Origin: Verrucomicrobiota bacterium
GTDB taxonomy: Bacteria > Verrucomicrobiota > Verrucomicrobiia > Limisphaerales > Palsa-1400
Direction: 5' to 3'
Length of the DNA: 64,000 nt
Assembly: GCA_050014435.1 (NCBI GenBank)
Contig: JBEKDI010000003.1
Coordinates: 27,901 to 91,900, forward strand
Shown: piece after piece, positions 5,355 to 60,991 of the stretch
How the letters are laid out: each line of letters starts with the position of its first letter
Numbering within the stretch: position 1 is the first letter of the stretch
Notes under the pieces: generated by a model
Told to the model about the DNA's origin: nothing
The model's input: the letters and a program-made list of their open reading frames with translations, nothing else
Databases searched by the model: none
Program-made: the position numbers and the translations under genes

Positions 5355-5963
5355 TTATTTCAGCTTGCCAAGCTTGGAACGAGCCAAGACCATCGCGGTC
5401 ATCGCGCCACCGAGCAGCGCAACCGTCAGGCCGCCATCCGGAACCCCACCAGCACCAGTATTGGAAGCGGCGAATCCGAACGTCGCCTGGCCGCTATTCC
5501 CACCACTTGAATCGGTAATGGTCAAAGTGAAATTCCCGGGCGTGGCAGTAAATCCGGCAGCACTATCAGTAAGCGTGCCAAGACCCATCAACTCCGCCGT
5601 AGTATTCCCACCGATGACGGTATAGGAAGTGATGGACGCCAGATTAAAGGCGAAAGTGTCACCCGCGCCGGAAAAGGACCAAAGAGGAGTATGGACTTGC
5701 GCCCCAGTGGCAAACAATAACGGCGTGGCCCATGTAACTGTCTGACCATACGTCGGCCCCAGTATCGAGTACGTGCCAGTGCCGCTTGCTACTGTGGTAG
5801 TGCCAAAAGCGGTGATTTCGGTCGCAGAAGTCAAACTTGTAGTATTCAACGTTGCTGTTCCGTTAAAATTGACTTCGCCTGTGATTGAAGTCGCTTGTGC
5901 TTGCTGCACGGCCAGAGCGCAGATCGCCGCTGACAACATCGAAATGGCTATTTTTATTTTCAT
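5355..5963 (-). CDS. Small secreted protein with VPD-type PEP-CTERM sorting signal (putative exosortase substrate)
   Basis: Internal ATG 5963 (preceded by taaggac) gives signal peptide MKIKIAISMLSAAICALAVQQAQA. The body is rich in T/S/G. The C-terminus GGVPDGGLTVALLGGAMTAMVLARSKLGKLK has the layout motif + TM helix + basic tail, which is the PEP-CTERM architecture and is closest to the VPDSG-CTERM variant. Confidence 0.8.
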   Translation of the reverse strand: MKIKIAISMLSAAICALAVQQAQATSITGEVNFNGTATLNTTSLTSATEITAFGTTTVASGTGTYSILGPTYGQTVTWATPLLFATGAQVHTPLWSFSGAGDTFAFNLASITSYTVIGGNTTAELMGLGTLTDSAAGFTATPGNFTLTITDSSGGNSGQATFGFAASNTGAGGVPDGGLTVALLGGAMTAMVLARSKLGKLK

Positions 5964-6037
5964 ATTTTTGTCCTTATAGTTTCTTGTTTTCACTTGCCTT
6001 TTTTCGTTTACCCGCTTCATTACGGTTACCTCCTATT

Positions 6038-6054
6038 AGCGATTTCTATGCCAA
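6038..6054 (-). promoter_or_regulatory. Candidate sigma54 (-24/-12) promoter upstream of the PEP-CTERM protein gene
   Basis: The minus strand reads TTGGCATAGAAATCGCT, i.e. TGGCAT-N5-TCGC. The GG-to-GC spacing is exactly that of the consensus TGGCAC-N5-TTGC. It lies ~75 nt upstream of ATG 5963. Confidence 0.35.
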
Positions 6055-6377
6055 CGATATTATTTGGTGGGCAAAAGCACCTTAACCCACTTATTATCAA
6101 TTGTTTGGGCATGGTGCTTACAAATTGTGGCAACCCCCCATCCAAGCAACTCTGTAAGGTTTATCGACGAGTTTACGCCGTTCAAAGGAGCGCTTGATAA
6201 GTAACATATTGAAACACAGACACTTGCACATATTTTAGCCTTCTGTAAGGCCAACCGACATAGCCAAGGGCGTTCTAAGGCTCGTCAAAAGGGCAATCAA
6301 ACGCAATCGTAATTGTTTGCAACTCGCTTAAATACAGGGACATACGGCATCGCCTCGCCACCCTGCCGGCCTTGCAA

Positions 6378-7088
6378 TCAATACCAACTGAACCGCATGG
6401 GAACGTTGATGACGTCGTCGGGCTTTAAGGTGAAGTTCGGCAGTTGCCCGCCATGAATCCCCTTGTAAAGGTTCAGAGTGGTTTTTGTCGTGACGCCCGC
6501 GCTGTCGGTCCGGATGATTTGGACGGATTTCAGATTCGACCTGGTAGTATCGATCCCCGCCTCGATCACCGCTTGCAAAGGGGTCAGAGGCCGCTCCGAA
6601 ATGAGTTTCCCGGGTTTCATGACCGCCCCCATGACATAAACCACAAATGCGGCCGATTGGACTGTGACCGAAGCCTCGCTGTTGACAAGCTGCGAACCGT
6701 AGAGTTTCTTCAGGTCCGCCTCCACTGCCGCCGGAGTTTTGCCGGCGGCTTCGTATTCGCCGATCATTTGCAAAGTGATCATGCCGTCCACTCGAATGCT
6801 CTCGATGGTGTCCAGGTTGGGCGCGCCCGGGAAAACGATCTTAATGGTGTCTCCCGCCTGTAACACAATGGATTTGTTCGCATTGGTCAATACATTGCCT
6901 GTCGCGCCTGGCAAAGCCAGGGCCGCCGGCGGCGGCGCGTTGGTGGAATGCGCGGGCGCACCGGCGGAGTGGGGGGATTGCGTCTGGCAGCCGACCGCCG
7001 CGGCCAACATTCCCAGCGCGAGCAGCCCCGCTTTCCTGTCCTTCGCGCAAGTTATCAATTTAACAAGTTTCATCATATCATTTGCCAT
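6378..7088 (-). CDS. Short outer-membrane polysaccharide export (OPX, Wza-family) lipoprotein
   Basis: Lipobox LGMLAAAVGC. The Poly_export-like segment VLQAGDTIKIVFPGAPNLDTIESIRVDGMITLQMIGEYEAAGKTPAAVEADLKKLY is followed by one SLBB-like segment. At 236 aa it has no room for the C-terminal Wza helix domain. Confidence 0.8.
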   Translation of the reverse strand: MANDMMKLVKLITCAKDRKAGLLALGMLAAAVGCQTQSPHSAGAPAHSTNAPPPAALALPGATGNVLTNANKSIVLQAGDTIKIVFPGAPNLDTIESIRVDGMITLQMIGEYEAAGKTPAAVEADLKKLYGSQLVNSEASVTVQSAAFVVYVMGAVMKPGKLISERPLTPLQAVIEAGIDTTRSNLKSVQIIRTDSAGVTTKTTLNLYKGIHGGQLPNFTLKPDDVINVPMRFSWY

Positions 7089-7208
7089 AATGACCTCCGG
7101 AATGCGCCGGGAATCCGGCGCGGTTGATTTTTACAACGTCATGGGAACCAGTCAAGAAAGCTTTGTCGAAATCTTTCAAAGAATTCGCATCGAAAAGCGG
7201 CGCCGGAA

Positions 7209-11447: not shown

Positions 11448-12734
11448 TCAGGCTTTGAAGACCTGCCCGGGACGGGTCTTGATTGATGCCATGGCATTGC
11501 GGGTATCCACGATGCAGGACGCCCATTTCGCCAGTTCGTTATAGTCGATGCTCTGGTGTTTGGTGGCGATGACCACGAGATCAAAGCTCTTGAGGATCGT
11601 TGCGTCCCACGGCACCGACTTCACTCCAGCCCAGTGCGGATGTTCGCGCGTCGGTTTGATGACCGGGACATAGGGATCGTAATACGAAACCTCCGCCCCG
11701 CGCTCCTTGAACAAGTTCATCAGCACGTAGCTGGGAGACTCGCGGTCATCGTCCACGTCCGCCTTGTAAGCCAGGCCGAGAATCAGGACTTTGGAGCCGT
11801 TGACCGATTTGCGTACGGTGTTGAGGGCGGCCACGCCTTGCAGGACAACATAATCGGGCATGGCGGTGTTGATTTCGCCGGCCAGTTCGATGAACCGCGT
11901 GTTTTGCGCGTACTCGCGCGCCTTCCAGGTGAGATAGAACGGATCGATGGGAATGCAATGCCCGCCCAGGCCGGGCCCGGGATAAAACGGCATGAAACCA
12001 AAGGGCTTCGTCCTGGCCGCGTCGATCACTTCCCAGACATCGATGCCCATGGCGCTGTAAACTACTTTCAATTCGTTCACCAGGGCGATATTGACGCTGC
12101 GGAAGATGTTCTCGGTCAGTTTGGTGGCTTCGGCCACGCGGCAGGAAGAGACCGGCACCAGGGTCTTGATGGCGCGGCCATAGACGGCCTTGGCGCGTTC
12201 CAAACAAGCGGGCGTCAACCCGCCAATGACTTTGGGAATCATCGCCACCTTGCTCTGCGGATTGCCCGGATCCTCGCGTTCCGGAGAAAAGGCCAGATGA
12301 AAATCAACCCCGGCTTTCATGCCTGACCCGGCCTCCAGCACGCCGCGCAAATCCTCGTCCGTTGTCCCCGGGTAGGTCGTGGATTCCAGCACCACCAGCG
12401 TCCCCTTGCGCAGGTGCGGCGCCAGGCTCCGCCCGGTGTCCAGGATGTAGGAAATGTCCGGCTCGCGGTTTTTGTTCAGGGGCGTCGGCACGCAAATGAT
12501 GACCGCCTCCACCTCCTTGACCCGGCTGAAATCAGTCGAGGCGGAAAACTTGCCGCCGTTGACTTCCCGGGCAATGGCCGCAGCTTCGATGTGCTTGATG
12601 TAACTCCTGCCGGCGTTGATGGCTGTGACCTTGGCTTCGTCCACGTCCAGTCCCAGGACCGTGGTGTCGGACCGCGCGAATTGCAAAGACAGCGGCAGTC
12701 CAACGTATCCCAGTCCAACAATCGCAATATTCAT
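11448..12734 (-). CDS. Nucleotide-sugar 6-dehydrogenase (UDP-GlcNAc / UDP-ManNAc dehydrogenase family, WbpA/TviB-like)
   Basis: N-terminal Rossmann motif MNIAIVGLGYVGLPLSLQFA. Family-typical GGHCIPIDP catalytic Cys segment. 428 aa. Confidence 0.85.
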   Translation of the reverse strand: MNIAIVGLGYVGLPLSLQFARSDTTVLGLDVDEAKVTAINAGRSYIKHIEAAAIAREVNGGKFSASTDFSRVKEVEAVIICVPTPLNKNREPDISYILDTGRSLAPHLRKGTLVVLESTTYPGTTDEDLRGVLEAGSGMKAGVDFHLAFSPEREDPGNPQSKVAMIPKVIGGLTPACLERAKAVYGRAIKTLVPVSSCRVAEATKLTENIFRSVNIALVNELKVVYSAMGIDVWEVIDAARTKPFGFMPFYPGPGLGGHCIPIDPFYLTWKAREYAQNTRFIELAGEINTAMPDYVVLQGVAALNTVRKSVNGSKVLILGLAYKADVDDDRESPSYVLMNLFKERGAEVSYYDPYVPVIKPTREHPHWAGVKSVPWDATILKSFDLVVIATKHQSIDYNELAKWASCIVDTRNAMASIKTRPGQVFKA

Positions 12735-12795
12735 ATTCTTGTATATGTCAATTATATGTTTCTTGGTTGTCTTTCCATCAACTTTTTTCCATTTT

Positions 12796-13815
12796 TCACT
12801 TTTTTTCGCTTTTTTTCACTTTTCCGACCCAATCCCGGTTGCTCAAGTACCATTGCACCGTCTCGCGAATGCCAGTCTCGAAAGTGTGCGCGGGGGTCCA
12901 GCCCAATTCCCTTTGTATCTTGCCAGCGTCGATGGCGTAGCGGCGGTCATGGCCGGGCCGGTCCTTGACATAACTGATGAGCCGGCGCGAGTTGCCGCCC
13001 AAGCGCGGGGCCAGCTCGTCCATCAGGTCGCAAATCAGCTCCACGATGCGAATATTGGCCCATTCGTTATGGCCGCCGATGTTGTAGGTCTCGCCGTCGC
13101 GTCCCCGGTTCAGCACCTGCCAGAGGGCCTCGGCGTGGTCGCCGACGTAAAGCCAGTCGCGCACGTTCATGCCGTCGCCATAAACGGGGATGGGCTTGCG
13201 CTGGCACACGCTCTCGATGATGACCGGGATGAGCTTCTCCGGAAACTGGCGGGGGCCGTAATTATTGGAACAATTGGTGGTGACCACGGGCAGGCCGTAA
13301 GTGTGATAATACGAGCGCACCAGCAGATCGCTCGACGCCTTGCTCGCGGAATAGGGCGAATTCGGCGCATACGGCGTGCTTTCGGTAAAGAAGCCCGACG
13401 GCCCCAGGCTGCCGTAGACCTCGTCGGTCGAAACGTGATGGAACCGTTTTCCGGCGAAGTTATTGCCCCATGCGCCGCGCACGGCCTCCAATAGATGGAA
13501 CGTGCCGACGATGTTGGTCTGGATAAAATCGCCCGGCCCGGCGATGGACCGGTCCACATGGGATTCCGCGGCCAAATGCAGCACATGAGTGATGGCTTGC
13601 CGTTGCACCACCTCGCAGATGGCGTCCTTGTCGCGCAGGTCCGTCTTCTCGAAGACATATTTCGCATGGCCGGCCAGCCCCTCGAGATTCTCCAGATGCC
13701 CCGCATAGGTCAGGCAATCCACATTGACCAGCCGCTGGATGCCGGCATTGCCAATAATATGATGGATCAGGTTCGACCCGATGAATCCGGCTCCCCCTGT
13801 GACAAGCAAGTTCAT
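12796..13815 (-). CDS. rfbB: dTDP-glucose 4,6-dehydratase
   Basis: [16 protein letters not shown]..., [15 protein letters not shown] (YxxxK), [17 protein letters not shown] 13815 overlaps the upstream stop in an ATGA arrangement. Confidence 0.9.
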
Positions 13816-14762
13816 TTTAAATTCACCCAGTTCTTCAGCGAATCCACCAGGGCATCCTCGACGGGACGGATGGCGACCCCGGCGGACAGCAGTTTGGTTG
13901 CGTCCAGTATGCAATTGGACCGCGGCGTTTTCGCGGCCACCTTGTAAAACTCCGCGTCATCGCTCCAAAACTCGAAGGAGCGCGCCGGACGCAGGATTTT
14001 TTGCATCATCTCCACCACCTGCCGGGTGGTGACGAAGCCGGGATTGGTGACATTGTAGGTCCCGAAGGGGGCCCGCTTCTGCCAGAGATCGAGGCAGGCG
14101 GCCGTGAAATCCCCGCGATGCGACAGGGAGTTGACGTTCTGATAGACTTTGGCGTAGTTGCGCAACTTGCTCAGGTAGTTGCGCGGATTGTCAAATCGAT
14201 CAAAGGGGATGCGCAAGCGCCAGATGTAACCCTGGCCGACGCCGCGCAAGGCCTCCTCGCCCAGCGCCTTGCTGCCGCTGTAAAAGCTGCACGGCGGACT
14301 GCGAAAAGTGAAATTCGGCTCATCCGCCTCGGTGAACCCCCGGAAGGCGGCGCGGTTTTTCTCCAACAAGGCCGGCAGGCCGTTCTTGTTCAAGTCTCTT
14401 TCGATGCGATCCCGTCCGCCCTCGACGACGCGGGCGCCGCTGAAAATGCAGCCGGACGACACATGGCCGTAGGGAATGCCCAGGCTGGCGCAGGCGTGGG
14501 CGGCCGCGGCGGGAAAAAGCGTGTTGCCCTGGAGTGTGTCGGCCCAGTGTTGCTCGCAGGCGTCCACGTTCGGTTTGCCGGTGTAGCCCGCCGCGTTGAT
14601 CAGGAATTCGGGCCGGATCTTTTCGAGGTAAGCGCGCAAGGCCGCGAATTGCCCGTAATCAATCTCCGAACGCAACGGAGCGGCAAATGGAATGCCGCGC
14701 TCCTGCAAAGTCCGGGCAAACTGCCCGCCGACATAACCGGTTCCGCCCAACAGAATAATCAT
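13812..14762 (-). CDS. NRS/ER-like dTDP(UDP)-4-keto-6-deoxyhexose reductase (RmlD superfamily, plant/giant-virus-like subtype)
   Basis: [13 protein letters not shown] Rossmann motif, [28 protein letters not shown] (YxxxK), and NPRNYLSKL...[18 protein letters not shown]...[12 protein letters not shown]. By recall these segments align with Arabidopsis NRS/ER (NPRNFITKI...FTNPGVVSHNEILEMY...PRSNNELDATKL) better than with E. coli RmlD. Confidence 0.7.
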
Positions 14763-14764
14763 AG

Positions 14765-15634: not shown

Positions 15635-15638
15635 GGGG

Positions 15639-16705: not shown

Positions 16706-17110
16706 TTACTTGCGATTACGGAGAAGCCGGCGCAATCGCGCCGTAGTTTTCTCCCGATCCAGGGCACCCGATGCAACATCCAGAGTCAACCGCTCCCAGG
16801 CATCCGTGTCCAGTTTTTCCCCCGGCAGCAAGCCGTTTTCGCTCAGGAACACCAGACACGTCGCCAGCGCCGTCCGCTTGTTGCCGTCCACAAACGGATG
16901 ATTGGAACATAGATAAAACAGATAGGCCGCGGCAATCTCCATGGGATTTGAAAACATTGCCTTGCCCATCATGGTCGCTTGTGGCGCTGCCACAGCCGAT
17001 TCCAGCAGCGCCTGGTCGCGCAAGCCCGCCAAACCGCCGTGCGCCGCCAGCACTTCGGCGTGAATGGCCATGACCGCCGCCACCGTGGGATGAGCCAATG
17101 GCCCGCTCAT
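16706..17110 (-). CDS. doc: Doc (death-on-curing) family toxin, Fic fold
   Basis: Contains [11 protein letters not shown], the Doc-type Fic motif H.F.[DE]GNKR. 134 aa. Its start overlaps the antitoxin stop (ATGA at 17107-17110). Confidence 0.85.
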
Positions 17111-17334: not shown

Positions 17335-17383
17335 GATGTAATACTACGTTTTACGCAGCGGGATGTCAAACCAGCCAGCCGGA

Positions 17384-46221: not shown

Positions 46222-46253
46222 ATTAGAGTTCTTCGTCGATTTTTGACACCTGC

Positions 46254-49442: not shown

Positions 49443-49471
49443 GATGAATAAGCCTGGTATTTGGCCCCGAC

Positions 49472-52400
49472 TCAATTATACCCCCGCATGATTGCGGCGC
49501 TGCCCGCCAGGTCCTCAATGGTGTTGACAATATGGCGGAGGGTCTCGCTGGACTGCCCGTTGGAGTTGGCCGGCGGCGGACGTTTTTCCAACCGGATTTT
49601 CACGGCAAGTTCCGCCGCGGATTTAATCAGAATCAAGCGGCCCGTTTGCTCGAGGTGCCGGTCAATCGCCCCGATGGCGCCCAGAAAGATACTGTACACT
49701 GGAACCCCGAGGGCGGTTGCCTCCCGATTCATCGTGCCACCGCCGCTGACCAACAGGTCGGAATGCCAGATCAAATTCAGGCCGCCCACAACGGCAGGTG
49801 GAATCACCGTTTTATTGTTCTCGAACCAACGGGGCCAATGGCTGCGAATGAACTCGCTTTGATGCTGATTTCGAGGAAGGAGTACGAGCCGGGTCTTGGG
49901 GGATTGGCAGGCGTAATCCATAAAACTGGTAAAGAGTTTTTCGCTCTCAGGGTTGTGATAATGCGCCTCCGTCGCGGGTGGGCGAACGGTGACAATCACA
50001 TCCGATTGGCTCAAACCCAATTCCTGCAAGATGCTGTGATTCGGGTGGAACTTCCAGACATAGGCATCCTCTTTTATTCCCGGATAGCGGAAAATGTGCT
50101 GGTGATCACGGCATAGCACCTCGTCTGGTATGACCGAGGGCACCATCTCCCAGGTTGGGCGCATCAAGGGCGGGTATTTGGCATACTCATAATCGGCCAA
50201 AAGGAGGCTGGGAATGCCCAAGGCATTGCTGATAATAATTTGTGAGCGCGCGCCGTGAGAAAGGCTCAAGGCCGGCTTCTCCCGCAAAGCGAACGGAGCC
50301 AATTGCATCGCCCGGATCAGCAGCCCGGCCACCTTCAACCCCGGATTCTTGCCGTAGTGCCGGCCCACTCGCGTGTAAGAGAGCTTCATTTGATCGGCAA
50401 GTTCGCACACCTGAAAAGCGTCCCGCGCCGTTACGAACACAGGATAGCCCCGTGACCGCAATTCATCCATAATCGGCTCGAAAAAAACAACGTGCGGCGT
50501 GTTGTCCAAGTCGATCCAAATTTTCGGCTTTGCTTTGACGACGGCCTTGTTAAGTCGTTCAACGCCAGCCATGTCCATCCCGCGCGGCTGGTCACGTGCC
50601 AGGGATGACGGCGCGGCGATTTTCTTTTCGAGAAGGTTTTGCACCAGCCCGCCGAAATGAACTTCTTCCAAGTCCCAGCAATGTTTTTTGTACACTTCCC
50701 GTCCCCGCTCCATTATTTGTTGCAATGGCGCTGGATGTTGAGCGGCCCACTCTATTTTTGCGGCCAGATCGTCGACGTTCCCCGCCTCAAAACACAAAAT
50801 ATTTTCGTCAGTAAAATAGTCCTTGATGCCTTTTGTCCGGGGCACAAGCACCGGCTTGTTCATGGCCAGACATTCAAAGATGCGCGTCGGCATATTGATC
50901 TGCGTGAATGGACTCAAGCGGTTGGGAATCAAGCCCAAATCTATCGTGGTCAGGGCTTGGGCAATTGCCTGCAAAGACTTAAAACCCTTGTACTGCACGG
51001 CATCTTGCAATCCCAGGTCCCGCACGACTCTCATCACACCATCCATGTAATCCGACGGACTGCCGTAAATATGCAATTGAATGCCAGGCACCTTCTCAAC
51101 AACCTTGGCCATGGCATGAACCGCCAAATCCAATCCGTGACGCTCCACCAGGAGACCATGATACATCAGGGTGAACGATTTCTCCCTGGCTATTTGTGGC
51201 TGGAAAACGCATGTCTCAGGATTGAAAAACCTCTGGCTCGGCGAGTTCATGACGATGTCAGTCTTCTGCGGCGGGCAACCTCGGGAAATGAAAAGGTCCC
51301 TGAAGGCTGTGTTTGGCGTCAGCACAAGATCAGCAAAGGCGATGCTCCGTCTTTCCATGAACTTGAGCCATCGCAACAGCCAATGATCTTCAGCAAGGCC
51401 ATAAATGGTGCGGAACAACTCCGGCATGGGATCATGCAGATCCAGGATCACCTTGGCCCCGCGCAGGCGCGGCAGCCAGGCGCTGAACACCAGGCAATCC
51501 GGCATGTTATGCACATGCACCAGCCGATAGCGCCTTCTCAGGGCCAGGGTTGACAAAAGAAGAAACGAAGCGGTCCAAAACCAAGCGTATTGAAAGGCAT
51601 AGACAATCTTCCCGGACCTGCGCCGGCGCAATGGGATTTTGTAAACATTGACCCCGTCGATTTTTTCGCTGAGCTTGGAGCCCCTCTCCTCACCGATGGA
51701 GATGACATCAACCTCCATGCCCCGCTTGACCAGGGCTTCAGCCTCTTCTCTCGGCCGCGCGTCTGAAGCATAATCGCCGTACAAAATGACCGCCGCCCGC
51801 ATCGACTTAAACGGCTGTTTGGCGGGCGATGCCGGCATGAAGCACTGATCCACAAAGGCACATTTCTGCGCCGGTCTTTCCGCGACCGGCGCGTGCTTGT
51901 TCCGATGCCAGGCAGCCAGATCCTTCGGCAACACATGCCAATATGCCCCGGGATATCGCTCGGCCACGTGCTTCAGAAAGCTTTCATAAAACTCCACCGG
52001 ATAAGTGCGCTTTGTGGCCCGTTCCCCCGCAAAGCAAAGGTAGTCCGGATGCACATCGATCAGAGCCATGCCCCGGTTCCGGGCGATCCAATCCAGTTTC
52101 TGAAACCAGATGTTGGGCGAAGTCTCTCCGAGCAATAGGAACAGTGTCGAATCTTGTGGCAGTGTATAAGGCAGTTCCAGATAGCCTTTACCCGCCCCCT
52201 GGGAAACCCAAAAAGGAAAGATCGTCCCTATATTGTCGGGCTGGGGCTCATAGGGATCGGTGTCGAAAGTCGAAGCGTCATATTGGATGTCAAGATCATG
52301 CAGCCATTCCAAGTTATGCAGCATGAAGCCGGAACGAAAACCCACCGCGCCCCACTCTTTGAGGTGCTGATTAATCTGAAGGGCCTTCTGGGTGAATGCC

Positions 52401-52807
52401 AGTCGGCTTTGATAAAGCCTCCCGTCGTGATGCAAATCATGGATGCCGGTTTCAAATCCATTGCGAGTCAGACACTCCCTCAATTCACGACCGATCCGAT
52501 AGTCTCCTTCCGGGATGAAATTGAATGAGGAACGAAAACCGTATTTCATTTCCAATTGCATCAATTGCCGGCACTTGCCAACCCCCGTTGGCCCCTCCAC
52601 GTCATGCGTCAGGACAAAAGCGAATTGCTTGTCGTGTGGCCAGCCGGGCCAGCCGTCTGGCGGCCGTTCCGAGCCGGGCAGAATCGGCCAAATGTCCCCC
52701 GAATGCCTGCGTTGCCGCCGGGCAATCCACTTGCGTACAATCTGCCGCGCCCCCGCAGGGATCAGAGGCTTGAGATCGTAATAGAGTCTGTTTCGAAACC
52801 CGGGCAT
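49472..52807 (-). CDS. 1,111-aa three-domain fusion: esterase/deacetylase-like + GT4 glycosyltransferase + DUF354-like GT-B domain
   Basis: aa ~60-260: FAFVLTHDVEGPTG...IHDLHHDG...DVHPDY (deacetylase-like metal motifs). aa ~336-715: GT4-like (VHVHNMP, ILDLHDP, MYHGLL, FECLAMNKPVLVP). aa ~760-1111: KIWIDLDNTPHVVFFEPIMDELRSRGYPVFVTARD...GGGTMNREATALGVPVYS, which resembles DUF354. Confidence 0.7.
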   Translation of the reverse strand: MPGFRNRLYYDLKPLIPAGARQIVRKWIARRQRRHSGDIWPILPGSERPPDGWPGWPHDKQFAFVLTHDVEGPTGVGKCRQLMQLEMKYGFRSSFNFIPEGDYRIGRELRECLTRNGFETGIHDLHHDGRLYQSRLAFTQKALQINQHLKEWGAVGFRSGFMLHNLEWLHDLDIQYDASTFDTDPYEPQPDNIGTIFPFWVSQGAGKGYLELPYTLPQDSTLFLLLGETSPNIWFQKLDWIARNRGMALIDVHPDYLCFAGERATKRTYPVEFYESFLKHVAERYPGAYWHVLPKDLAAWHRNKHAPVAERPAQKCAFVDQCFMPASPAKQPFKSMRAAVILYGDYASDARPREEAEALVKRGMEVDVISIGEERGSKLSEKIDGVNVYKIPLRRRRSGKIVYAFQYAWFWTASFLLLSTLALRRRYRLVHVHNMPDCLVFSAWLPRLRGAKVILDLHDPMPELFRTIYGLAEDHWLLRWLKFMERRSIAFADLVLTPNTAFRDLFISRGCPPQKTDIVMNSPSQRFFNPETCVFQPQIAREKSFTLMYHGLLVERHGLDLAVHAMAKVVEKVPGIQLHIYGSPSDYMDGVMRVVRDLGLQDAVQYKGFKSLQAIAQALTTIDLGLIPNRLSPFTQINMPTRIFECLAMNKPVLVPRTKGIKDYFTDENILCFEAGNVDDLAAKIEWAAQHPAPLQQIMERGREVYKKHCWDLEEVHFGGLVQNLLEKKIAAPSSLARDQPRGMDMAGVERLNKAVVKAKPKIWIDLDNTPHVVFFEPIMDELRSRGYPVFVTARDAFQVCELADQMKLSYTRVGRHYGKNPGLKVAGLLIRAMQLAPFALREKPALSLSHGARSQIIISNALGIPSLLLADYEYAKYPPLMRPTWEMVPSVIPDEVLCRDHQHIFRYPGIKEDAYVWKFHPNHSILQELGLSQSDVIVTVRPPATEAHYHNPESEKLFTSFMDYACQSPKTRLVLLPRNQHQSEFIRSHWPRWFENNKTVIPPAVVGGLNLIWHSDLLVSGGGTMNREATALGVPVYSIFLGAIGAIDRHLEQTGRLILIKSAAELAVKIRLEKRPPPANSNGQSSETLRHIVNTIEDLAGSAAIMRGYN

Positions 52808-55075: not shown

Positions 55076-55080
55076 ACGTT

Positions 55081-55217
55081 ATAAAATGGAATATTTCACG
55101 ATAAATGGAATATTTCACGATAAATGGAATATTTCACGATAAATGGAATATTTCACGATAAATGGAATATTTCAGGAAATTTCAGGATATTTCAGGATAT
55201 TTCACGATAAATGGGGG
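55081..55217. repeat. AT-rich tandem repeat array: 19-bp unit x5 plus three 10-bp half-units
   Basis: Plus-strand unit ATAAATGGAATATTTCACG. Copies: 55081-55100 (one extra A), 55101-55119, 55120-55138 and 55139-55157 (all three perfect), and 55158-55176 (1 mismatch). Half-units aaatttcagg, atatttcagg and atatttcacg span 55177-55206, and a truncated unit starts at 55207. The array fills the whole intergenic gap. The upstream stop codon (55202-55204) is inside it and the Wzc-like ATG (55073-55075) is 5 nt from it. Confidence 0.95.
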
Positions 55218-56293
55218 TATAGAATCCGGCCGGCCAGACGCAGCAGCGGCGGCGGCAGCAGCGCAAAAACCCGGTTAAACCAGCCTTCCGCGCGGTCCGC
55301 GTCGCGGACAAATTGCCCCGCTGAGAAATCATACCGGCAATATGCCACGGTTTCCTCGGATGCACCCAACGAAAGTTTAAAACGCCGCAGACCTTCGTTG
55401 GCCAAGGAAGTGCGGCCCAAGTGCAATTCCGCAGCCCCCCGATCCGCATAGTGCTTCATGGCGGCCCACATCATCAGGTTGTTCGGCCTCATTTGTTGAA
55501 AGGAGTAGTCAGACGCTCCAAATTTGTAGAGCGCCCGCCGGTCATGACAAAAAAAAACCCCCGCCGCCAGCGGCTGGTCCTTCAACCGCGCGGTTGCAAC
55601 AAATCCCTGGCCCCCCTCGATGATGTGGCGCTGAATGCTCCGGAAAAATCGGAACGGTTGCGGCGGCAGCCCGTGACGGCGGCGCGTCCGGCAATGCAGC
55701 GCGTAAAAAGTTTCCATCGCCTCCAAACTGCCGCTGAAATCGACCCGCAAGCCCGCTGCCTCGGCTTTGCGGATACCGCGCCGGATGGCGCTGTCCAGCC
55801 GGTTAAAAAGCCCGTCGGCTCCGGCGGAGAGATCGATCACATGGGCATAAAACCCCAGTGAAGGTGACGCGCCAACCCAACCTTCACCCGGGCTTCGGCA
55901 CTCAAAATATTTCCATCGTCGTTCATGGCCCGAGTCCATGCCCGCCTCATACAGAGACCTGGCGTCCAGCTTCCCACTATTGAGCGCGGGACAGAAATCC
56001 GTGAAAGGCAGTGAAACACCGCGGCGCCCTGTCCACGGGCTGGAGACTTCCATGATGGGAACCAACCCTGCGAGTTGCCGGCCTTCGAAACGGCAGATAT
56101 AAACCGGCCTGTGTCCGTAAGTTTGCTGAAGCACGCGCGCCCAGCCGCTTCCATGGAAAATGGATGCCCGCGGATGGGCCGCCAACAGCGAATCCCATTC
56201 CGGGCATTGCAAGGGATCAACCACGACGGGCGCCCCAGAGGGGCACGGGTCGGAGGTTCGCCTGGCTTTTTCATCTTGGGCCGGCGAAATCAT
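55202..56293 (-). CDS. FemAB-related / BioF2-like acetyltransferase-fold protein (second copy in locus)
   Basis: RPNNLMMWAAMKHYADRGAAELHLGRTSLANEGLRRFKLSLGA is typical of the FemAB-related, PEP-CTERM-locus family. ATG 56293 overlaps the upstream stop (ATGA). Confidence 0.65.
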   Translation of the reverse strand: MISPAQDEKARRTSDPCPSGAPVVVDPLQCPEWDSLLAAHPRASIFHGSGWARVLQQTYGHRPVYICRFEGRQLAGLVPIMEVSSPWTGRRGVSLPFTDFCPALNSGKLDARSLYEAGMDSGHERRWKYFECRSPGEGWVGASPSLGFYAHVIDLSAGADGLFNRLDSAIRRGIRKAEAAGLRVDFSGSLEAMETFYALHCRTRRRHGLPPQPFRFFRSIQRHIIEGGQGFVATARLKDQPLAAGVFFCHDRRALYKFGASDYSFQQMRPNNLMMWAAMKHYADRGAAELHLGRTSLANEGLRRFKLSLGASEETVAYCRYDFSAGQFVRDADRAEGWFNRVFALLPPPLLRLAGRILYPHLS

Positions 56294-57423
56294 TTTAAAC
56301 AATTGCTGACCGGCCTTCGGCCGCTGATGCACATCTTCAACTCATCCGCCACCGCGTGGATTTGCGCGTGGCTCAACTCGGGAAACATGGGCAGCGAGAG
56401 AAATTCCTCCGCGCATGTTTCCGCAATCGGGAAGGAACCTTTTTTGCAACCCAGGAAACTGTAGGCCTCCTGCAAATGCACCGGGATCGGGTAATGAATG
56501 GCGCAGGTGATGCCCTTGTCGGCCATGGCTTGAAGAACCTGATCGCGGTTCTGGACCCGCACGGCATAGACGTGATAGACATGGCGTCCCTCAGGCGACT
56601 CGAACGGAGTGATGATTTCCTCCGCGCCGCCCAGCAACTGATCGTAACGCAGGGCGTGCGAATGACGCTTGACGTTGCCCACGTCCAAATGCTTGAGCTT
56701 GACACTCAGAACGGCACCTTGAATTCCGTCCATCCTGGCGTTCCACCCGATTTTTGAATGATGGTATTTGCGGTGCTGGCCGTGATCGCGCAAAACCCGG
56801 ATCTTTTCGGCTAATTCCGGGTCGCCGGTCACAACGGCGCCCGCTTCCCCAAACGCGCCCAGGTTTTTGCCGGGATAAAAGCTGAAACAGCCGGCCACCC
56901 CCATGCTGCCGGCTTTGCGCCCCTTGTAGAGCGCGCCGTGCGCCTGGCAGGCGTCCTCCACGACCGGGATGCGGCGCCGGGCGGCGATTTCAAGAATCGG
57001 ATCCATGTCGGCGCACTGGCCAAAGAGCTGAACGGGAATAATGGCTTTGGTTCGGGGTGTAATGGCGGCCTCGAGCAAGTCCGGATCGAGGGTGTAAGTT
57101 CGCTCGTCAATATCCACGAACATCGGTTCCGCCCCGCAGAAACTGATGGCTTCCGCCGTGGCCATGAAAGTGCTGGGCACGGTGATGACTTCATCACCCG
57201 GGCCGACGCCCAGCGCCAGCAAACTGAGCCAAAGAGCATCCGTGCCGTTGCCAACCCCGACGGCAAAGGCCGAACCACAGTATTGGGCAAAATCCCGCTC
57301 GAACGCGGCCACAAAAGGGCCGCCGGCAAAGGCATTGCTGTCAATGACGTCGCGGATGGCGGCGTCGAGTTGTGCGCGCAAGGGTTGGTGGTGGGCCTTG
57401 AGGTCCAGGAATGGAACTTTCAT
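56290..57423 (-). CDS. wbpE: DegT-family aminotransferase, WbpE/WlbC-like (UDP-2-acetamido-2-deoxy-3-oxo-glucuronate aminotransferase)
   Basis: MKVPFLDLKAHH..., NGTDAL, SFYPGKNLGA (PLP lysine). It follows the oxidoreductase and acetyltransferase in WlbA-B-C order. Confidence 0.7.
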   Translation of the reverse strand: MKVPFLDLKAHHQPLRAQLDAAIRDVIDSNAFAGGPFVAAFERDFAQYCGSAFAVGVGNGTDALWLSLLALGVGPGDEVITVPSTFMATAEAISFCGAEPMFVDIDERTYTLDPDLLEAAITPRTKAIIPVQLFGQCADMDPILEIAARRRIPVVEDACQAHGALYKGRKAGSMGVAGCFSFYPGKNLGAFGEAGAVVTGDPELAEKIRVLRDHGQHRKYHHSKIGWNARMDGIQGAVLSVKLKHLDVGNVKRHSHALRYDQLLGGAEEIITPFESPEGRHVYHVYAVRVQNRDQVLQAMADKGITCAIHYPIPVHLQEAYSFLGCKKGSFPIAETCAEEFLSLPMFPELSHAQIHAVADELKMCISGRRPVSNCLK

Positions 57424-57434: not shown

Positions 57435-57932
57435 TTAGACGGCGACCGGCCCGGCCTTTTTCAGGACGCGGGCGGGATTACCCGCCACGACCGCGCCGGC
57501 GGGAACGTCCCGGGTCACAACGCTGCCGGCGCCGATCATGGCGCCAGGCCCAACGGTGATGCCGCATAACAGTGTCACACCGGAACCGATCGACGCGCCC
57601 CGTTTGACGTGAGTCGGAATGCACTTCCAATCGGCCTCGGTTTGCAAGGCGCCATCGTCATTGGTGGCCCGGGGATAAAGGTCATTAATAAAAGTGACAT
57701 TATGCCCGACAAATACATCATCCTCCAAAATCACCCCTTCACAGATGAAAGTGTGGCTGGAGATTTTGCAGCGGGAGCCAATGCGGGCGCCTTTTTGAAT
57801 CTCAACAAAGGAGCCTATTTTCACGTCATCCCCGATCTCGCAGCCGTAAAGATTGGCGAAGGCGAAGACACGGACGCCCCTGCCCATTTTCACATCGGGA
57901 GCAATCCGCTGGTAGAGCGGGAGTTGAGACAT
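57435..57932 (-). CDS. wbpD: Hexapeptide-repeat N-acetyltransferase, WbpD/WlbB-like
   Basis: LbH repeats (IGDDVKIGSFVEIQKGARIGSRCKISSHTFI, IGSGVTLLCGITVGPGAMIGAGSVVTRDVPAGAVVAGNPA). Internal ATG 57932 is used. Confidence 0.7.
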   Translation of the reverse strand: MSQLPLYQRIAPDVKMGRGVRVFAFANLYGCEIGDDVKIGSFVEIQKGARIGSRCKISSHTFICEGVILEDDVFVGHNVTFINDLYPRATNDDGALQTEADWKCIPTHVKRGASIGSGVTLLCGITVGPGAMIGAGSVVTRDVPAGAVVAGNPARVLKKAGPVAV

Positions 57933-57946
57933 GATGCCGGACGCGC

Positions 57947-59086
57947 CTAGAGACCGATGCGGGTAGCCGGCTGCGTGGCCGGGATGGGCCACTTGGAGGT
58001 TCTTTGCTTGCCGTTCCTGCCGTTGGAATGAGGCAGGCCGTCAGCGGGGGCGGGTAGGGAGGAGGGATAAGGAGTCAGTTCCACAGGACTGCCGCCCAAC
58101 TTCAAGGATTCGGAGGAAACCTCCAGGATCCTGACCAATTCCAGCCCTTTTTCCCCGCTGGTCAATGGTTCTTTGCCGTTCTGGATGCAGTCCAGGAAAT
58201 GCTGACACTCGGTTTTGAGGGGTTCTTCCTGCTTGAGGTAAGGGGCGTATGTATCACCGTAATGATACGCGTAATGAAACTCCGCAAAGGTATCGTAGTG
58301 CGGCGGCCGCTCGACGCGCGCGTCAAAAATCCTGATCTTTTCCTGCTGGGCCACATCGTCATAAACGACCATGCGCTTGCTGCCCACGATGGTCATTTCC
58401 CGGACTTTGCGCGGATCAAGCCAACTGCTGTGAATGATGGCCGAGCGGTCTTTGCGAAAACTCAGGCTCATGGAAGTAACGTCTTCCACGCCGGGAGTGA
58501 CGTGAGCGCTGCCGCGGCAGTTGACGCTGTAAGGCTGTTCTCCGAGCAAATGCAAAATGATGGAAATGTCGTGCGGGGCCAAATCCCAAGCGACGTTGAT
58601 GTCCTTTTGGAACAGGCCGAGGTTAAGGCGGCGGGCGCAAATGTAACGCACCTCGCCCAGTTCGCCGCGATCCACGATCTCCTTGATCTTCCGAACGGCG
58701 GGCGAATAAAGGAAAGTGTGCCCCACCATGAGAACGACGCCCTGCTTTCGGGCCAGTTCCACCAATTCGGCGCACTGCGCCGAGGAGGCCGCCATGGGCT
58801 TCTCAATCAGGGTATGTTTCCCCGCCAGCAGGCTGGCTTTGGCCATGGGAAAATGCAGCTTGACCGAGGTGGCAATGGCAACGGCATCGATCCCGACGCC
58901 GTTGAGCATGTGGCCGTAATCCTTTTCGCCCTTGACTTCGGGATACAATGAAGAGAGGTGTTTGAGGCGGTCGTGGCTCAGGTCGCACATCATGTGCAGG
59001 TCGCAGTCTGGCAAAGACCGGAAATTGCGCACCAGGTTTGGACCCCAGTAGCCACAGCCAACCACTCCAACTTTGATTCGTTTCAT
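57947..59086 (-). CDS. wbpB: Gfo/Idh/MocA-family oxidoreductase, WbpB/WlbA-like (UDP-GlcNAcA 3-dehydrogenase)
   Basis: MKRIKVGVVGCGYWGPNLVRNF (Rossmann) and EKPMA motif (LIEKPMAAS). Genomic context with WbpD/WbpE-like genes. Confidence 0.7.
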   Translation of the reverse strand: MKRIKVGVVGCGYWGPNLVRNFRSLPDCDLHMMCDLSHDRLKHLSSLYPEVKGEKDYGHMLNGVGIDAVAIATSVKLHFPMAKASLLAGKHTLIEKPMAASSAQCAELVELARKQGVVLMVGHTFLYSPAVRKIKEIVDRGELGEVRYICARRLNLGLFQKDINVAWDLAPHDISIILHLLGEQPYSVNCRGSAHVTPGVEDVTSMSLSFRKDRSAIIHSSWLDPRKVREMTIVGSKRMVVYDDVAQQEKIRIFDARVERPPHYDTFAEFHYAYHYGDTYAPYLKQEEPLKTECQHFLDCIQNGKEPLTSGEKGLELVRILEVSSESLKLGGSPVELTPYPSSLPAPADGLPHSNGRNGKQRTSKWPIPATQPATRIGL

Positions 59087-59166
59087 ATATTCTCGAATTT
59101 GCGAATTCCCGAACTATTTGACAGCAAGCAGGAAGCATGCCTTCCGCCCTGGCACGGGCTGAGTAT

Positions 59167-59925
59167 TCACGGGGCAACTTTCACGCGCTTCTCGGAGTGA
59201 ATAGGGTTCGTTTTGGCGCCGCCTATTTTCATTTCCCACACCAGGAGCAGGATGGCCGGAATCGTCAGGGCCATGATCTTGAGGTCGAGCCAGAGCGACT
59301 TGTTTTCCACATAGTAGAGATCCAAATTGATCTGCTGCTCGAAGGTCGTTTTGTTCTTGCCGCTGACCTGCCACAAGCCAGTCAGACCGGGCGGGGCTTC
59401 GCAGCGGCGTCTATGGCGGGGCAGGAACAAGTCGAACTCAAACGGCGTGCAAGGCCGGGGGCCGACCAAGCTCATTTCGCCGCGCAAAACGTTGATCAAT
59501 TGAGGCAGTTCGTCCAAGCCAAGGGATCGGAGAAGCAGACCGCCGAAAATCAACCGCTTGTCACCGCTGCAATCCAGTTTCTTGGTGGGGTGGTTGGAAG
59601 TGATCAATTGTTTGAGATGGTCCTGGTGAACGGTGGTGTCCGCATCGATTTTCATGGTGCGGAATTTCAAACACATAAAGCGCTTGCCGAACGCGCCGAC
59701 GCGCTGCTGACGGAAAAAGGCCGGGCCAGGTGAAACCAGCTTGATGAACAGCGCAATAAGCACGCCCAAGGGCACGATCAGGGGTAGGGCCAGCAGGATG
59801 CACAGGACATCCAGAGTGCGCTTCCACGACGGAAACGGCTTTTGCGCGGCAAGGGGCAACGAGCCTTGCTCCCCTTCGCGTATGGGATAGCTGATCCCGA
59901 TTGAAGCCTCGTTTGGCTTTAGCAT
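59167..59925 (-). CDS. Polyprenyl-phosphate sugar-phosphate transferase (bacterial sugar transferase, WbaP C-terminal/EpsL-like; priming enzyme)
   Basis: One N-terminal TM helix (VLCILLALPLIVPLGVLIALFI). GKRFMCLKFRTM, LDELPQLINVLRGEMSLVGPRP, PGLTGLWQVSG. Confidence 0.9.
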   Translation of the reverse strand: MLKPNEASIGISYPIREGEQGSLPLAAQKPFPSWKRTLDVLCILLALPLIVPLGVLIALFIKLVSPGPAFFRQQRVGAFGKRFMCLKFRTMKIDADTTVHQDHLKQLITSNHPTKKLDCSGDKRLIFGGLLLRSLGLDELPQLINVLRGEMSLVGPRPCTPFEFDLFLPRHRRRCEAPPGLTGLWQVSGKNKTTFEQQINLDLYYVENKSLWLDLKIMALTIPAILLLVWEMKIGGAKTNPIHSEKRVKVAP

Positions 59926-60147
59926 GTTAATTCGAAATAAACGGCCGAACCCAAAAACAGGCCCAGCCAGGGCCGCTCAAATCTCGCGTGCAAAGATTAA
60001 ACTGCTCAATTGCATCCACTCTATCATCCTTCTTGCCTGATGTCCACTATTAACTCCAAAGCTCCGCACATGATGGTCGATGTCATTTCGCCATCTTTTT
60101 TCACTACTTTCCCCTTTTCCCATAAATCACTATCTTGATGAGACAGA

Positions 60148-60726
60148 CTAACTCGCGGCGGCAACGTCCGCCGGGTCGCTCGTTGCCAGCAAAGGCAGAA
60201 GGTCGGCCACCCGCCGGTTCTCCAGCTTCAACGATTTTCGATCCACTTCTGTCAAAGTTACCCTGCCCAAGAAATCCAGCAGTATTTGTACCCTTTGCCC
60301 CGCTGATAATGCCCGCACCACCATTCCTGAGAATCCCAGGAAAGCCCCCTCGACAATGGTCACTTCAGCCCCAGGCACAACACCGTCTTGCACAATCATA
60401 GGCTGCTCAGACTCAAACCATTGCCTCAATTCATCTATCGCGCTGTCCGGCACCGCCGGAATCTTCTTCCCGAAATGCACCAGGCTGCTAATCCCCGTGA
60501 CGTGGCGGATGTCATCCACCCCATTCTCAAGAATGCAACGAACAAAAATGTAACAGGGGAAAAGCGGTTCGACAACCCGCATCACGCCCCGCCGCGTGGC
60601 CCGCTCCAATCGCAAACGGGGATGGAAAACTTCCAAGCCCAAATTCTTGGTGATATTGGCCGCCGCGATATGCTCGTGCTTCGGCTTGGTTCTTGCGCAA
60701 TACCATGCTGGATTTGAAATATGCAT
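60148..60726 (-). CDS. RfaH/NusG-paralog transcription antiterminator (UpxY-like position at head of the locus)
   Basis: WYCARTKPKHEHIAAANI, EPLFPCYIFVRC, GISSLVHFG..PAVPDSAIDELR, and the KOW-like PGAEVTIVEGAFLGFSGMV parallel E. coli RfaH segment by segment. ATG 60726 is used (the track start is TTG 60741). Confidence 0.8.
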   Translation of the reverse strand: MHISNPAWYCARTKPKHEHIAAANITKNLGLEVFHPRLRLERATRRGVMRVVEPLFPCYIFVRCILENGVDDIRHVTGISSLVHFGKKIPAVPDSAIDELRQWFESEQPMIVQDGVVPGAEVTIVEGAFLGFSGMVVRALSAGQRVQILLDFLGRVTLTEVDRKSLKLENRRVADLLPLLATSDPADVAAAS

Positions 60727-60962
60727 CAATTCGTAAGGCAAATCCGACTTGTGCCAATACTAGTTTTTAACTGAGCCCGCACCCGCCCGTTGTCCCTCAT
60801 CCCCCGTCCGGCCGCTCTGAAGCCACGTGGCACCTCTGTCGCAATTCATAACAATTTTGCTACACAGCAACATTAATAGCCATAATGACTACAGTATATA
60901 AAACTGCTCGTCAAGTGCTTTTTGCACTGTTCCGTTCGAATTATTCCAACAATCGACACAGT

Positions 60963-60991
60963 AATTTACAGCAGCATCCATACCATGTCAA
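60963..60991 (-). promoter_or_regulatory. Candidate sigma70-type promoter for the EPS locus
   Basis: The minus strand reads TTGACA (60991-60986), a 17-nt spacer, then TAAATT (60968-60963). It begins 6 nt after the gnd stop and ~235 nt upstream of the RfaH-like ATG. Confidence 0.3.

Follow-up and report, generated by a model that had tools for sequence, protein, structure and literature searches.

What kind of system is encoded by a block of more than fifty kilobases in which every gene points the same way, and how could so long a block be read? This question is raised by contig JBEKDI010000003.1 of a Verrucomicrobiota bacterium of the order Limisphaerales (assembly GCA_050014435.1), of which a 64-kb stretch (positions 27,901 to 91,900, here called the window; coordinates count from its first letter) was analyzed. 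A preliminary description had proposed a single exosortase/PEP-CTERM exopolysaccharide (EPS) mega-locus headed by an RfaH-like antiterminator. We consider it probable that the block is a Limisphaerales (Verrucomicrobiota) version of the exosortase-associated surface-polysaccharide locus, of the XrtC/VPDSG-CTERM type, read with the help of a NusG paralog and with its last cargo gene driven separately.

An exosortase locus of probable XrtC type

The block comprises 46 minus-strand genes over 55.4 kb, the first being the NusG paralog (60148-60726) and the last a cargo gene (5355-6020), with a coding density of 96% between 5355 and 60726. All features are collected in Table 1. Family membership of the exosortase was indicated by TIGR04178 (49.9 against a cut-off of 23), about eight hydrophobic segments and the APECSG motif, while TIGR02602 scored 98.7, just under its cut-off of 105.55. 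Among the subfamily models TIGR04151 (XrtC) gave 238.1 against 130.8 for XrtW and 107.6 for XrtA. Relatives at 44-71% identity have been automatically annotated as exosortase C by the Joint Genome Institute (JGI). NCBI files an identical exosortase under a Verrucomicrobiota metagenome-assembled genome (MAG), and the nearest relatives come from Limisphaerales MAGs. By its scores the enzyme is XrtC-like, with VPDSG/PDGG-type signals, and not an XrtA. Directly 3' of it in all eight related loci examined is the gene for PrsT, a TPR lipoprotein which in the window scores above the equivalog cut-off and carries a lipobox.

Two sorting-signal cargo genes had been described, and VPD-type C-terminal signals were found in both. 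The motifs VPDGG and VPDEA, both leading into a helix and a basic tail, occur in the two proteins, whose C-termini read GGVPDGGLTVALLGG...KLGKLK and AVPDEANSLALLGLG...FRRR; cargo 2 ends in VPDEANSLALLGLGLSALALFRRR. Terminal genes of relatives end with the same combination of PDGG, helix and basic signal. The true start of cargo 1 is likely the ATG at 5963, because only this start yields a signal peptide, and the position of a sigma-54-type motif upstream also suggests it.

The PEP-CTERM hallmark set claimed for the locus was recovered in its composition, with an exosortase, PrsT, two FemAB-like proteins, a CE4 deacetylase, AsnB and two VPD-type cargo genes, but most of these score below the cut-offs of the XrtA system and the exosortase is XrtC-like. 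Scores and cut-offs for the XrtA-system equivalog models were 66/180 for TIGR03027 (the short outer-membrane polysaccharide export, or OPX, lipoprotein), 110/260 for TIGR03019, 553/817 for TIGR03108, 59/279 for TIGR03007, 64/231 for TIGR03018 and 132/393 for TIGR03013. Judged by these scores the accessory proteins are homologs of the XrtA-system models and not equivalogs. Because the best exosortase match is XrtC-like and the accessory scores lie far below the cut-offs, we regard the locus as a sister of the classical XrtA system rather than a member of it.

A conserved head and tail around a variable middle

Conservation of the head was counted in 66 species-level genomes with enough DNA flanking the NusG paralog, taking genes on the same strand. 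The position of the paralog at the head of the locus was kept in 60-64 of the 66, with the priming transferase downstream of it in 60; counts for the genes that follow are given in Table 1. Past the polysaccharide co-polymerase (PCP), after about 7 kb of head genes, gene content differs between genomes. At the other end, eight related loci with exosortases of 88-44% identity keep the sugar genes, the exosortase, a PrsT of about 1070 aa, usually the short OPX, and a small PDGG-CTERM protein. Tail synteny was seen in relatives whose exosortases are 88, 70, 50, 47 and 44% identical, and the order of the sugar genes at 11448-16694 is shared with L007-L012, L096 and L098. In two of the eight loci (88% and 50% identity) the beta-barrel candidate and the block of DegT, membrane protein, CysD and CysNC are kept as well, and a protein of 497-504 aa occupies the beta-barrel position in L007 and L011.

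At least four other genomes carry the NusG paralog and XrtC on a single contig and on one strand, with 43-52 kb between them. Closed metagenome-assembled chromosomes with the system include OY969416.1 and OY969763.1. Like capsule and O-antigen loci, the block is thus conserved at its head and tail and variable between them. A synteny check had been proposed for the exosortase-PrsT-OPX block and for the antiterminator with the priming transferase; both blocks are kept in relatives, the OPX usually but not always. Pgi and the Gnd-like gene, which lie upstream of the paralog on the same strand, were rejected as members of the locus since they are adjacent only in the closest relatives (2/66 and 1/66 genomes). 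The next gene upstream, 63662-63988 (-), runs off the window, overlaps the Pgi start by 4 nt and encodes a four-helix-bundle 'suffix domain' protein of the 23S rRNA intervening-sequence protein type; contig gene calls place a Ser/Thr kinase further upstream.

A NusG paralog and an ops-like leader element

The first gene of the locus combines the features general to specialised NusG paralogs, namely an NGN domain, a position beside the target operon and a conserved leader element. It scored 56.9 bits with Pfam NusG (PF02357), and its NCBIfam scores were all under the cut-offs: RfaH 82.1 (144.5), UpxY 71.8 (100), LoaP 53.5 (125) and NusG 44.3 (135.7). RfaH was the closest match both in NCBIfam and in the PDB (E = 1.6e-9 in the latter). 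Relatives were found in 364 GTDB species representatives, and identity among relatives, many of them metagenome clusters, was 75-96%, far above that of the rest of the locus. In the AlphaFold model residues 131-191 are helical but have a pLDDT below 50; an RfaH-like fold switch was therefore dropped as an argument, the C-terminal domain being too uncertain. Upstream of the gene, TTGACA-17-TAAATT scored 10/12 in a consensus scan, and a second TTGAC with its A-run was invariant across an alignment of four divergent loci, a region for which promoter function is predicted.

Alignment of the spacers between the NusG paralog and the priming transferase revealed a leader element composed of a hairpin followed by TGCGGAGC. 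The sequence CAAGTGCGGAGCYTT was present 80-160 nt past the paralog stop codon in 69 of 73 related spacers of this kind, and TGCGGAGC was invariant across 75 distinct leader sequences. The hairpin has 7 bp, covaries and contains many G-U pairs: 75% of cells in the alignment pair, compared with 30-56% when the partner is slid, and the covariation score of 0.315 (controls at most 0.21) was reached by none of 500 shuffles. The 10-mer AGTGCGGAGC occurred 70 times in 1.48 Mb of related loci, 65 of them at the leader position, against about 3 occurrences expected by chance as estimated from sequence length. In L045 and L079 the full element lies 5' of the NusG-paralog gene, which is a Bacteroides-like order, and L045 has a second copy 2.1 kb downstream.

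The core TGCGGAGC fits YGCGNAGC, with a Y as the next base and not the R of opsX, and differs from the Escherichia coli ops element GCGGTAGC by one missing T. Because the element shares its layout and the GCG-N-AGC core with opsX, it is likely the recruitment or loading site of the NusG paralog. The claim of an RfaH-like antiterminator at the head is upheld to the extent that the gene is a NusG paralog with RfaH as its best match, and the antiterminator role gains support from the conserved leader element.

Alternatively, the hairpin and TGCGGAGC might act as promoter or operator for the biosynthetic operon, or else be a small RNA or an attenuator. The element does occupy a spacer between genes, as a promoter would, the 5' arm of its hairpin (GTTGGCG) resembles a -35 hexamer, and binding of the paralog is a prediction made from the sequence; moreover Rfam returned nothing at gathering scores in the window and nothing significant in the leader. 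We nevertheless regard this explanation as unlikely. A sigma-70 promoter would not be expected to combine an invariant 8-mer with a covarying hairpin that has many G-U pairs, the GCG-N-AGC core with its upstream hairpin reproduces the published opsX design, and the element always accompanies the NusG-paralog gene, which it precedes in L045 and L079 and otherwise follows.

A terminator-like hairpin followed by UUUAUUU also lies in this leader, 17 nt before the priming transferase gene (-21.6 kcal/mol, z = -2.15). A conserved leader terminator acting as an antitermination checkpoint was considered and rejected, as a terminator-like site occurs in only 2 of 69 related leaders; the hairpin is confined to the closest relatives and is a lineage-specific feature at most.

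Operon structure and alternative explanations

As had been described, all credible coding sequences from 5355 to the right edge lie on the minus strand. An open reading frame (ORF) listing with start-site inspection showed that the genes tile this interval without break, in agreement with JGI gene calls on the source contig, a 109-kb metagenome contig of which the window is the reverse complement, and long plus-strand ORFs were all antisense to minus-strand ORFs with strong family matches (for example 14816-15766 opposite RmlA and 17813-19282 opposite CysNC). All eleven overlaps and all eight gaps above 100 bp were found at the coordinates first given. Eight overlaps of 4 nt read ATGA or GTGA on the minus strand (13812-15, 17107-10, 19309-12, 43268-71, 47138-41, 56290-93, 62019-22 and 63662-65), the 8-nt overlaps at 20700-07 and 29440-47 read ATGGATAG and ATGGTTGA, and the 20-nt overlap at 42279-98 reads ATGAAAAACAACGCTTTTGA. 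The gaps are 6021-6377, 7089-7208, 24472-24573, 26489-26633, 38670-39032, 55076-55201, 59926-60147 and 60727-60996. The strong terminator closing the locus was likewise borne out by sequence and folding energy (-25.5 kcal/mol, z = -7.2, with none of 200 shuffles as stable), and it sits between the locus and a convergent plus-strand gene at 4668-5222. Forty-nine co-oriented genes far exceed random orientation. A general strand bias explains part of this, since the upstream housekeeping genes are co-oriented too and the cumulative GC skew falls steadily across the window.

The block is not, however, one clean transcription unit. In the 357-bp spacer before cargo 1 stands a sigma-54-type -24/-12 motif, TGGCATAGAAATCGCT, and an equivalent motif stands ahead of the terminal cargo gene in L007, L009, L011, L012 and L097, that is in six of six loci including the window. 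In the five other spacers TGGCAC/T-N5-NNGCW stands 58-100 nt away from the start codon, and two of these sites match the sigma-54 consensus almost perfectly. Across the window the pattern occurs at the frequency expected by chance, so that only its positional conservation across genomes is meaningful. On this sequence evidence the last cargo gene would have its own conserved sigma-54-type promoter, for which reason the locus is not regarded as one operon. The mega-locus first proposed thus stands as a single-strand block with linked head and tail, and not as one transcription unit, given this promoter and a further promoter-like site at the toxin-antitoxin pair. Right after the cargo gene of L097, and adjoining XrtC-PrsT, are genes for a histidine kinase and a sigma-54 activator (PrsK/PrsR-like). 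A second sigma-54-like motif in the window, TGGCATGGCTCCTGCA at 968-983 (+), lies just outside the locus, 45 nt before a plus-strand gene (1028-4435) for a 1135-aa BspA-type leucine-rich-repeat protein.

Several observations speak against an XrtC-type polysaccharide locus read by a NusG paralog. The exosortase, though closest to XrtC by a wide margin, falls under that subfamily's cut-off of 300, the NusG paralog is below the curated cut-offs for RfaH, UpxY and LoaP, and family scans found no PrsK/PrsR pair in the window. Of the Wzx/Wzy-type pathway described as complete, hidden Markov model (HMM) scans sustained the priming transferase (PF02397, 193.9), Wzx (PF13440, 306.3), PCP (Wzz, 34.4) and OPX (Poly_export, 51.8), but the Wzy candidate had no Pfam or NCBIfam hit and the beta-barrel candidate no family hit. 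The PCP contains neither a GxxxxGK[ST] Walker A motif nor a tyrosine-rich tail (its tail reads ...NKNRSYLPRRLHQEL), and so departs from the PCP-2a (Wzc) type. The 8-mer TGCGGAGC alone occurs at chance frequency within the window, and its significance therefore rests wholly on cross-genome conservation; the hairpin with TGCGGAGC might alternatively serve as a promoter or bind a different factor. Both the operon structure and antitermination are themselves predictions, and six intergenic gaps of 100-363 bp inside the proposed operon could hold internal promoters.

These gaps, together with promoter-like sites scattered through the block, would also suit several independent polysaccharide loci lying side by side on the leading strand (for example an O-antigen or capsule locus, a nucleotide-sugar locus and a small exosortase module). 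The middle is not the same in all genomes and in one relative holds ABC-transporter (Wzm/Wzt) genes, the upstream housekeeping genes share the orientation of the block, and in a few genomes tail genes stand just upstream of the NusG paralog. Such an arrangement is improbable in our view, because the head-tail spacing and orientation noted above are kept despite exosortase identities of only 47-88%, the block has only a single priming transferase, Wzx, PCP and OPX, and its sole strong terminator is at its end.

More improbable still is a protein-glycosylation system in which the glycan serves mainly to modify PDGG-CTERM proteins rather than to form a free exopolysaccharide or capsule: the flippase matches an O-glycosylation flippase model best in NCBIfam (326 bits, under its cut-off), the priming transferase is small and PglC-like with a diacetamido-sugar pathway beside it, the cargo proteins are Ser/Thr/Gly-rich and glycosylation of PEP-CTERM proteins has been proposed in published models, but PCP, OPX and a probable porin indicate polymer export, and no oligosaccharyltransferase was recognised in the block, where the polytopic protein at 39033-40337 could be ligase-like rather than a Wzy. 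Glycosylation and polymer export are not mutually exclusive.

Gene content and the predicted glycan

Table 1. Features of the locus, listed from the head to the closing terminator. Scores are in bits, with cut-offs in brackets; genome counts refer to the 66 genomes described in the text; GT, glycosyltransferase family; CE, carbohydrate esterase family; GH, glycoside hydrolase family.
Feature	Position	Strand	Evidence or remarks
Putative promoter region of NusG-paralog gene	60910-60991	-	TTGACA-17-TAAATT (60991..60963); second TTGAC (60914..60910) after A-run
NusG specialised paralog, 192 aa, first gene of locus	60148-60726	-	NGN domain and KOW-like C-terminus
Ops-like leader element	60061-60095	-	hairpin (arms 60095-60088, 60080-60072), then ATG-TGCGGAGC; core 60068-60061
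Terminator-like hairpin, then UUUAUUU	59942-59969	-	17 nt before priming transferase gene
Priming polyprenyl-phosphate sugar-phosphate transferase, small monotopic, 252 aa	59167-59925	-	PF02397 193.9; TIGR03025 245 (<295.55)
WbpB-like oxidoreductase	57947-59086	-	family match; 64/66 genomes
Hexapeptide acetyltransferase (WbpD)	57435-57992	-	family match; 62/66 genomes
DegT aminotransferase, head	56290-57423	-	family match; at least 37/66 genomes
FemAB-like protein 1	55202-56293	-	TIGR03019 109.9 (<260.35); Acetyltransf_6 81; FemAB 46; 47/66 genomes
PCP, 750 aa	52823-55075	-	Wzz 34.4; TIGR03007 59 and TIGR03018 64, both under cut-off; 58/66 genomes
1111-aa protein: unassigned N-terminal region, GT4, DUF354	49472-52807	-	family matches
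WecB 2-epimerase	48294-49475	-	family match
Predicted deacetylase-fold protein, 380 aa	47138-48280	-	AlphaFold pLDDT 76.6; model resembles CE4 and GH57 structures
GT2	46254-47141	-	family match
AsnB amidotransferase	44290-46275	-	family match
Two GT2	42279-44272	-	family matches
Methyltransferase	41648-42298	-	family match
GT4	40372-41622	-	family match
Polytopic Wzy candidate	39033-40337	-	about 8 or more hydrophobic segments
Secreted 809-aa protein with Laminin_G_3 domain	36240-38669	-	family match
Acetyltransferase	35514-36176	-	family match
GT2	34389-35510	-	family match
DesI-like aminotransferase	33174-34379	-	family match
ATP-grasp	31849-33168	-	family match
Wzx flippase	30334-31788	-	PF13440 306.3
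CE4 deacetylase	29440-30297	-	family match
FemAB-like protein 2	28395-29447	-	family match
GT2	27351-28304	-	family match
GNAT	26634-27311	-	family match
Cargo 2	25769-26488	-	TIGR03778 22.4 (cut-off 22); PF18205 23.5 (<25)
GT10-like	24574-25806	-	family match
GalE-like epimerase	23467-24471	-	family match
Candidate outer-membrane beta-barrel, about 500 aa	21892-23400	-	no hydrophobic helices; Ser/Gly/Thr-rich; ends ...SINYRY
DegT aminotransferase, tail	20700-21875	-	family match
192-aa membrane protein	20129-20707	-	
CysD	19309-20121	-	369.5 (>195)
CysN/APS-kinase fusion	17384-19312	-	CysN 350 (>336); APS kinase 254 (>138.7)
AbrB/MazE-like antitoxin, 75 aa	17107-17334	-	weak hit
Doc toxin	16706-17110	-	TIGR01550 41.4 (>38.65)
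TviC-like epimerase, RmlA, divergent RmlD-like reductase, RmlB, NDP-sugar 6-dehydrogenase	11448-16694	-	family matches
Exosortase, XrtC-like, 339 aa	10426-11445	-	PF09721 132.1 (cut-off 25.7); APECSG cysteine motif
PrsT-type TPR lipoprotein, about 1070 aa	7209-10445	-	TIGR02917 332.5 (>312.2); lipobox ..AGGC
Short OPX lipoprotein, 236 aa, Poly_export and one SLBB	6378-7088	-	Pfam 51.8 and 34.0; lipobox ..AVGC
Sigma-54-type -24/-12 motif TGGCATAGAAATCGCT	6038-6053	-	in 357-bp spacer before cargo 1
Cargo 1, small secreted Thr/Ser/Gly-rich protein	5355-6020	-	PF18205 18.8 (<25); ends ..GGVPDGGLTVALLGGAMTAMVLARSKLGKLK
Bidirectional intrinsic terminator closing locus	5296-5326	.	A-run, 9-bp G+C stem, T-run

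A route for synthesis and export was proposed from the established Wzx/Wzy, Wbp and Rml sugar pathways and from exosortase models. By analogy with the known Wbp pathway, the WbpB-like enzyme, the acetyltransferase and DegT would make a 2,3-diacetamido sugar, whose phosphate the priming transferase would load on a lipid carrier, starting the repeat unit. In the middle of the locus about ten glycosyltransferases, with amino-, acetyl-, methyl-, amido- and deacetyl-modifying enzymes, would build a decorated repeat unit, likely comprising a diacetamido-uronic acid that AsnB may amidate, a 6-deoxyhexose or amino-dideoxyhexose, acetyl and methyl groups and perhaps aminoacyl groups. Wzx would flip this unit, the polytopic protein would polymerise it and the PCP would set chain length. 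The tail would supply a dTDP-6-deoxyhexose, a uronic-acid dehydrogenase and 3'-phosphoadenosine-5'-phosphosulfate (PAPS), the short OPX and the candidate barrel would carry the polymer over the outer membrane, and XrtC would cleave the PDGG-CTERM signal and may link cargo to the glycan. As for transcription, RNA polymerase would pause at the hairpin and TGCGGAGC just downstream of the NusG-paralog gene, where the paralog would load in the manner of RfaH at ops and of UpxY at opsX, maintaining processive transcription over about 54 kb to the terminator. The last cargo gene would be driven separately by its sigma-54 promoter, as in classical PEP-CTERM systems.

For some steps the assignment is a candidate one. 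The protein at 39033-40337 is the sole Wzy candidate in the block, named as such for its topology, composition and conserved position, and a Wzy_C protein is present in the locus of one relative. Topology, composition and conserved position likewise suggest that the product of 21892-23400 is a beta-barrel. The C-terminus of the PCP is a degenerate P-loop/kinase-like domain, and judging from its sequence the protein is probably a pseudo-kinase. The GT2 and deacetylase-fold genes that overlap by 4 nt in the window are represented by a fusion of about 650 aa in some metagenome relatives (P0251 and P0252), and no similarity was found between the two deacetylase-looking unknowns. In L097 (CAZHXG010000003.1, 935-3062) the variable middle holds ABC2_membrane and ABC_tran with Wzt_C, not only genes of the Wzx/Wzy type.

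Family scans found no RmlC in the locus. Because of this absence the product of RmlA, RmlB and the RmlD-like reductase may not be L-rhamnose but a dTDP-6-deoxy-D-hexose or an amino-dideoxyhexose. CysD and the fusion of CysN with adenosine 5'-phosphosulfate (APS) kinase hint at sulfation. Neither Pfam and NCBIfam scans of the unassigned proteins nor a scan for PAPS-binding motifs returned a sulfotransferase, and PDB sequence searches made with two unknowns in this hunt gave nothing significant; sulfation is for this reason kept as a hypothesis, and a housekeeping role of the PAPS genes is possible. The protein at 47138-48280 was considered as a sulfotransferase and set aside, as its model shows a deacetylase or hydrolase barrel of the CE4/GH57 type. 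A more distant relative (L012, 4512-5243) has a CysQ-like gene of the inositol-phosphatase family in place of CysD/CysNC.

Between the PAPS and sugar genes stands a Doc type II toxin-antitoxin pair, the antitoxin ORF overlapping the toxin by 4 nt and preceded by a promoter-like site (17369..17341). The pair is missing at this position in L007, L008 and L011 and is thus taken to be a local, lineage-specific insertion. A Phd/PIN pair is inserted between RmlD and RmlB in L096 (6857-7638), and toxin-antitoxin insertions seem to recur in such long loci.

Comparison with known systems and implications

Exopolysaccharide-associated sorting by XrtA/EpsH with PrsK/PrsR/PrsT was described by Haft et al. 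2006 (PMC1569441), with a 40-kb EPS locus as an example; proteobacterial PEP-CTERM cargo was there found as single genes after a large spacer with a sigma-54 -24/-12 motif (PMC1569441). Like the XrtA system, including the floc systems of Zoogloea and Aquincola, the present locus sets an exosortase beside EPS genes, PrsT, FemAB-like proteins, a deacetylase, AsnB, PCP, OPX and small, diverse secreted cargo. A sigma-54 motif upstream of the cargo gene is shared as well (in the window and in five related loci), and this spacer together with the adjacent kinase and activator in L097 matches the published arrangement. Unlike it, the locus has an XrtC-like exosortase (238 against 108 bits), VPD(G/S/E)G signals and not PEP, no PrsK/PrsR in the window, and a NusG paralog with an ops-like leader at its head. 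With the XrtC/VPDSG-CTERM class (TIGR04151, TIGR03778, PF18205) it shares the best-scoring exosortase subfamily and a cargo 2 that reaches the TIGR03778 cut-off, but the exosortase scores 238 where 300 is required and both cargo proteins are under the Pfam gathering score.

E. coli ops is GCGGTAGC, and Bacteroides opsX consists of a region encoding a pause hairpin followed by YGCGNAGCR, for example ttggctgaga...tctcacccaaCTGCGAAGCATA (PMC11685472). As with RfaH/ops and UpxY/opsX, a NusG paralog heads a long polysaccharide operon here and the leader has a hairpin before the GCG-N-AGC core. In contrast to UpxY/opsX, the locus has no evident gene for a UpxZ-like inhibitor, its element usually follows the paralog gene instead of preceding it, and each genome has, as far as could be seen, a single locus where Bacteroides has eight in competition. 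The Wzx/Wzy EPS pathway of Myxococcus xanthus uses a short OPX, EpsY, and a separate beta-barrel. The present locus likewise has a short OPX lipoprotein without an outer-membrane-spanning domain and a separate candidate barrel gene, but the EpsY model gave only 53 (cut-off 320) and the barrel candidate has no detectable homology to known porins. PAPS-forming genes inside a polysaccharide locus are also found in the clusters for synechan of Synechocystis (PMC13125312) and for a sulfated capsule of Vibrio (PMC11641403), which have recognisable sulfotransferases, whereas none was found here by HMM, motif or fold.

The building blocks are all of known families, and both exosortase-linked EPS loci and polysaccharide operons led by NusG paralogs are established. 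In the literature searched, no papers were found on XrtC/VPDSG-CTERM or on RfaH-like factors in Verrucomicrobia. The system had been called probably undescribed; this holds for the literature searched, but the parts are known to standard pipelines and the class is catalogued (TIGR04151, TIGR03778). Relative to the literature searched, three things are new: a description of the XrtC neighborhood, the size and conservation of that neighborhood in Limisphaerales, and the ops-like element, the last being the most interesting part of the locus. Taken to its furthest, the reading would be of a new, phylum-wide verrucomicrobial antitermination pair driving an operon of about 54 kb for a sulfated, amidated diacetamido-uronic-acid glycan to which XrtC attaches PDGG-CTERM proteins, the sulfotransferase being of a kind that cannot be recognised by sequence. 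That whole combination is doubtful and we offer it tentatively; if it were true, bipartite recognition by a pause hairpin and a GCG-N-AGC non-template hairpin, the design also used by Bacteroides UpxY/opsX and E. coli RfaH/ops, would be either ancient or repeatedly reinvented.

Peat, bog and soil harbor Limisphaerales and related Verrucomicrobiota in abundance, and almost none of them have been cultured. For these bacteria the locus seems to be the main conserved system for surface glycans and protein sorting. It would provide a concrete pair of cis-element and factor for processive antitermination outside Proteobacteria, Bacteroidota and Firmicutes, and it ties the uncharacterised XrtC class to a defined gene neighborhood. 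If the PAPS genes mean sulfation, a rare bacterial route to sulfated polysaccharides would be added. In peat, bog and soil the surface polymers of Limisphaerales and related Verrucomicrobiota probably influence aggregation, the retention of water and the turnover of carbon.

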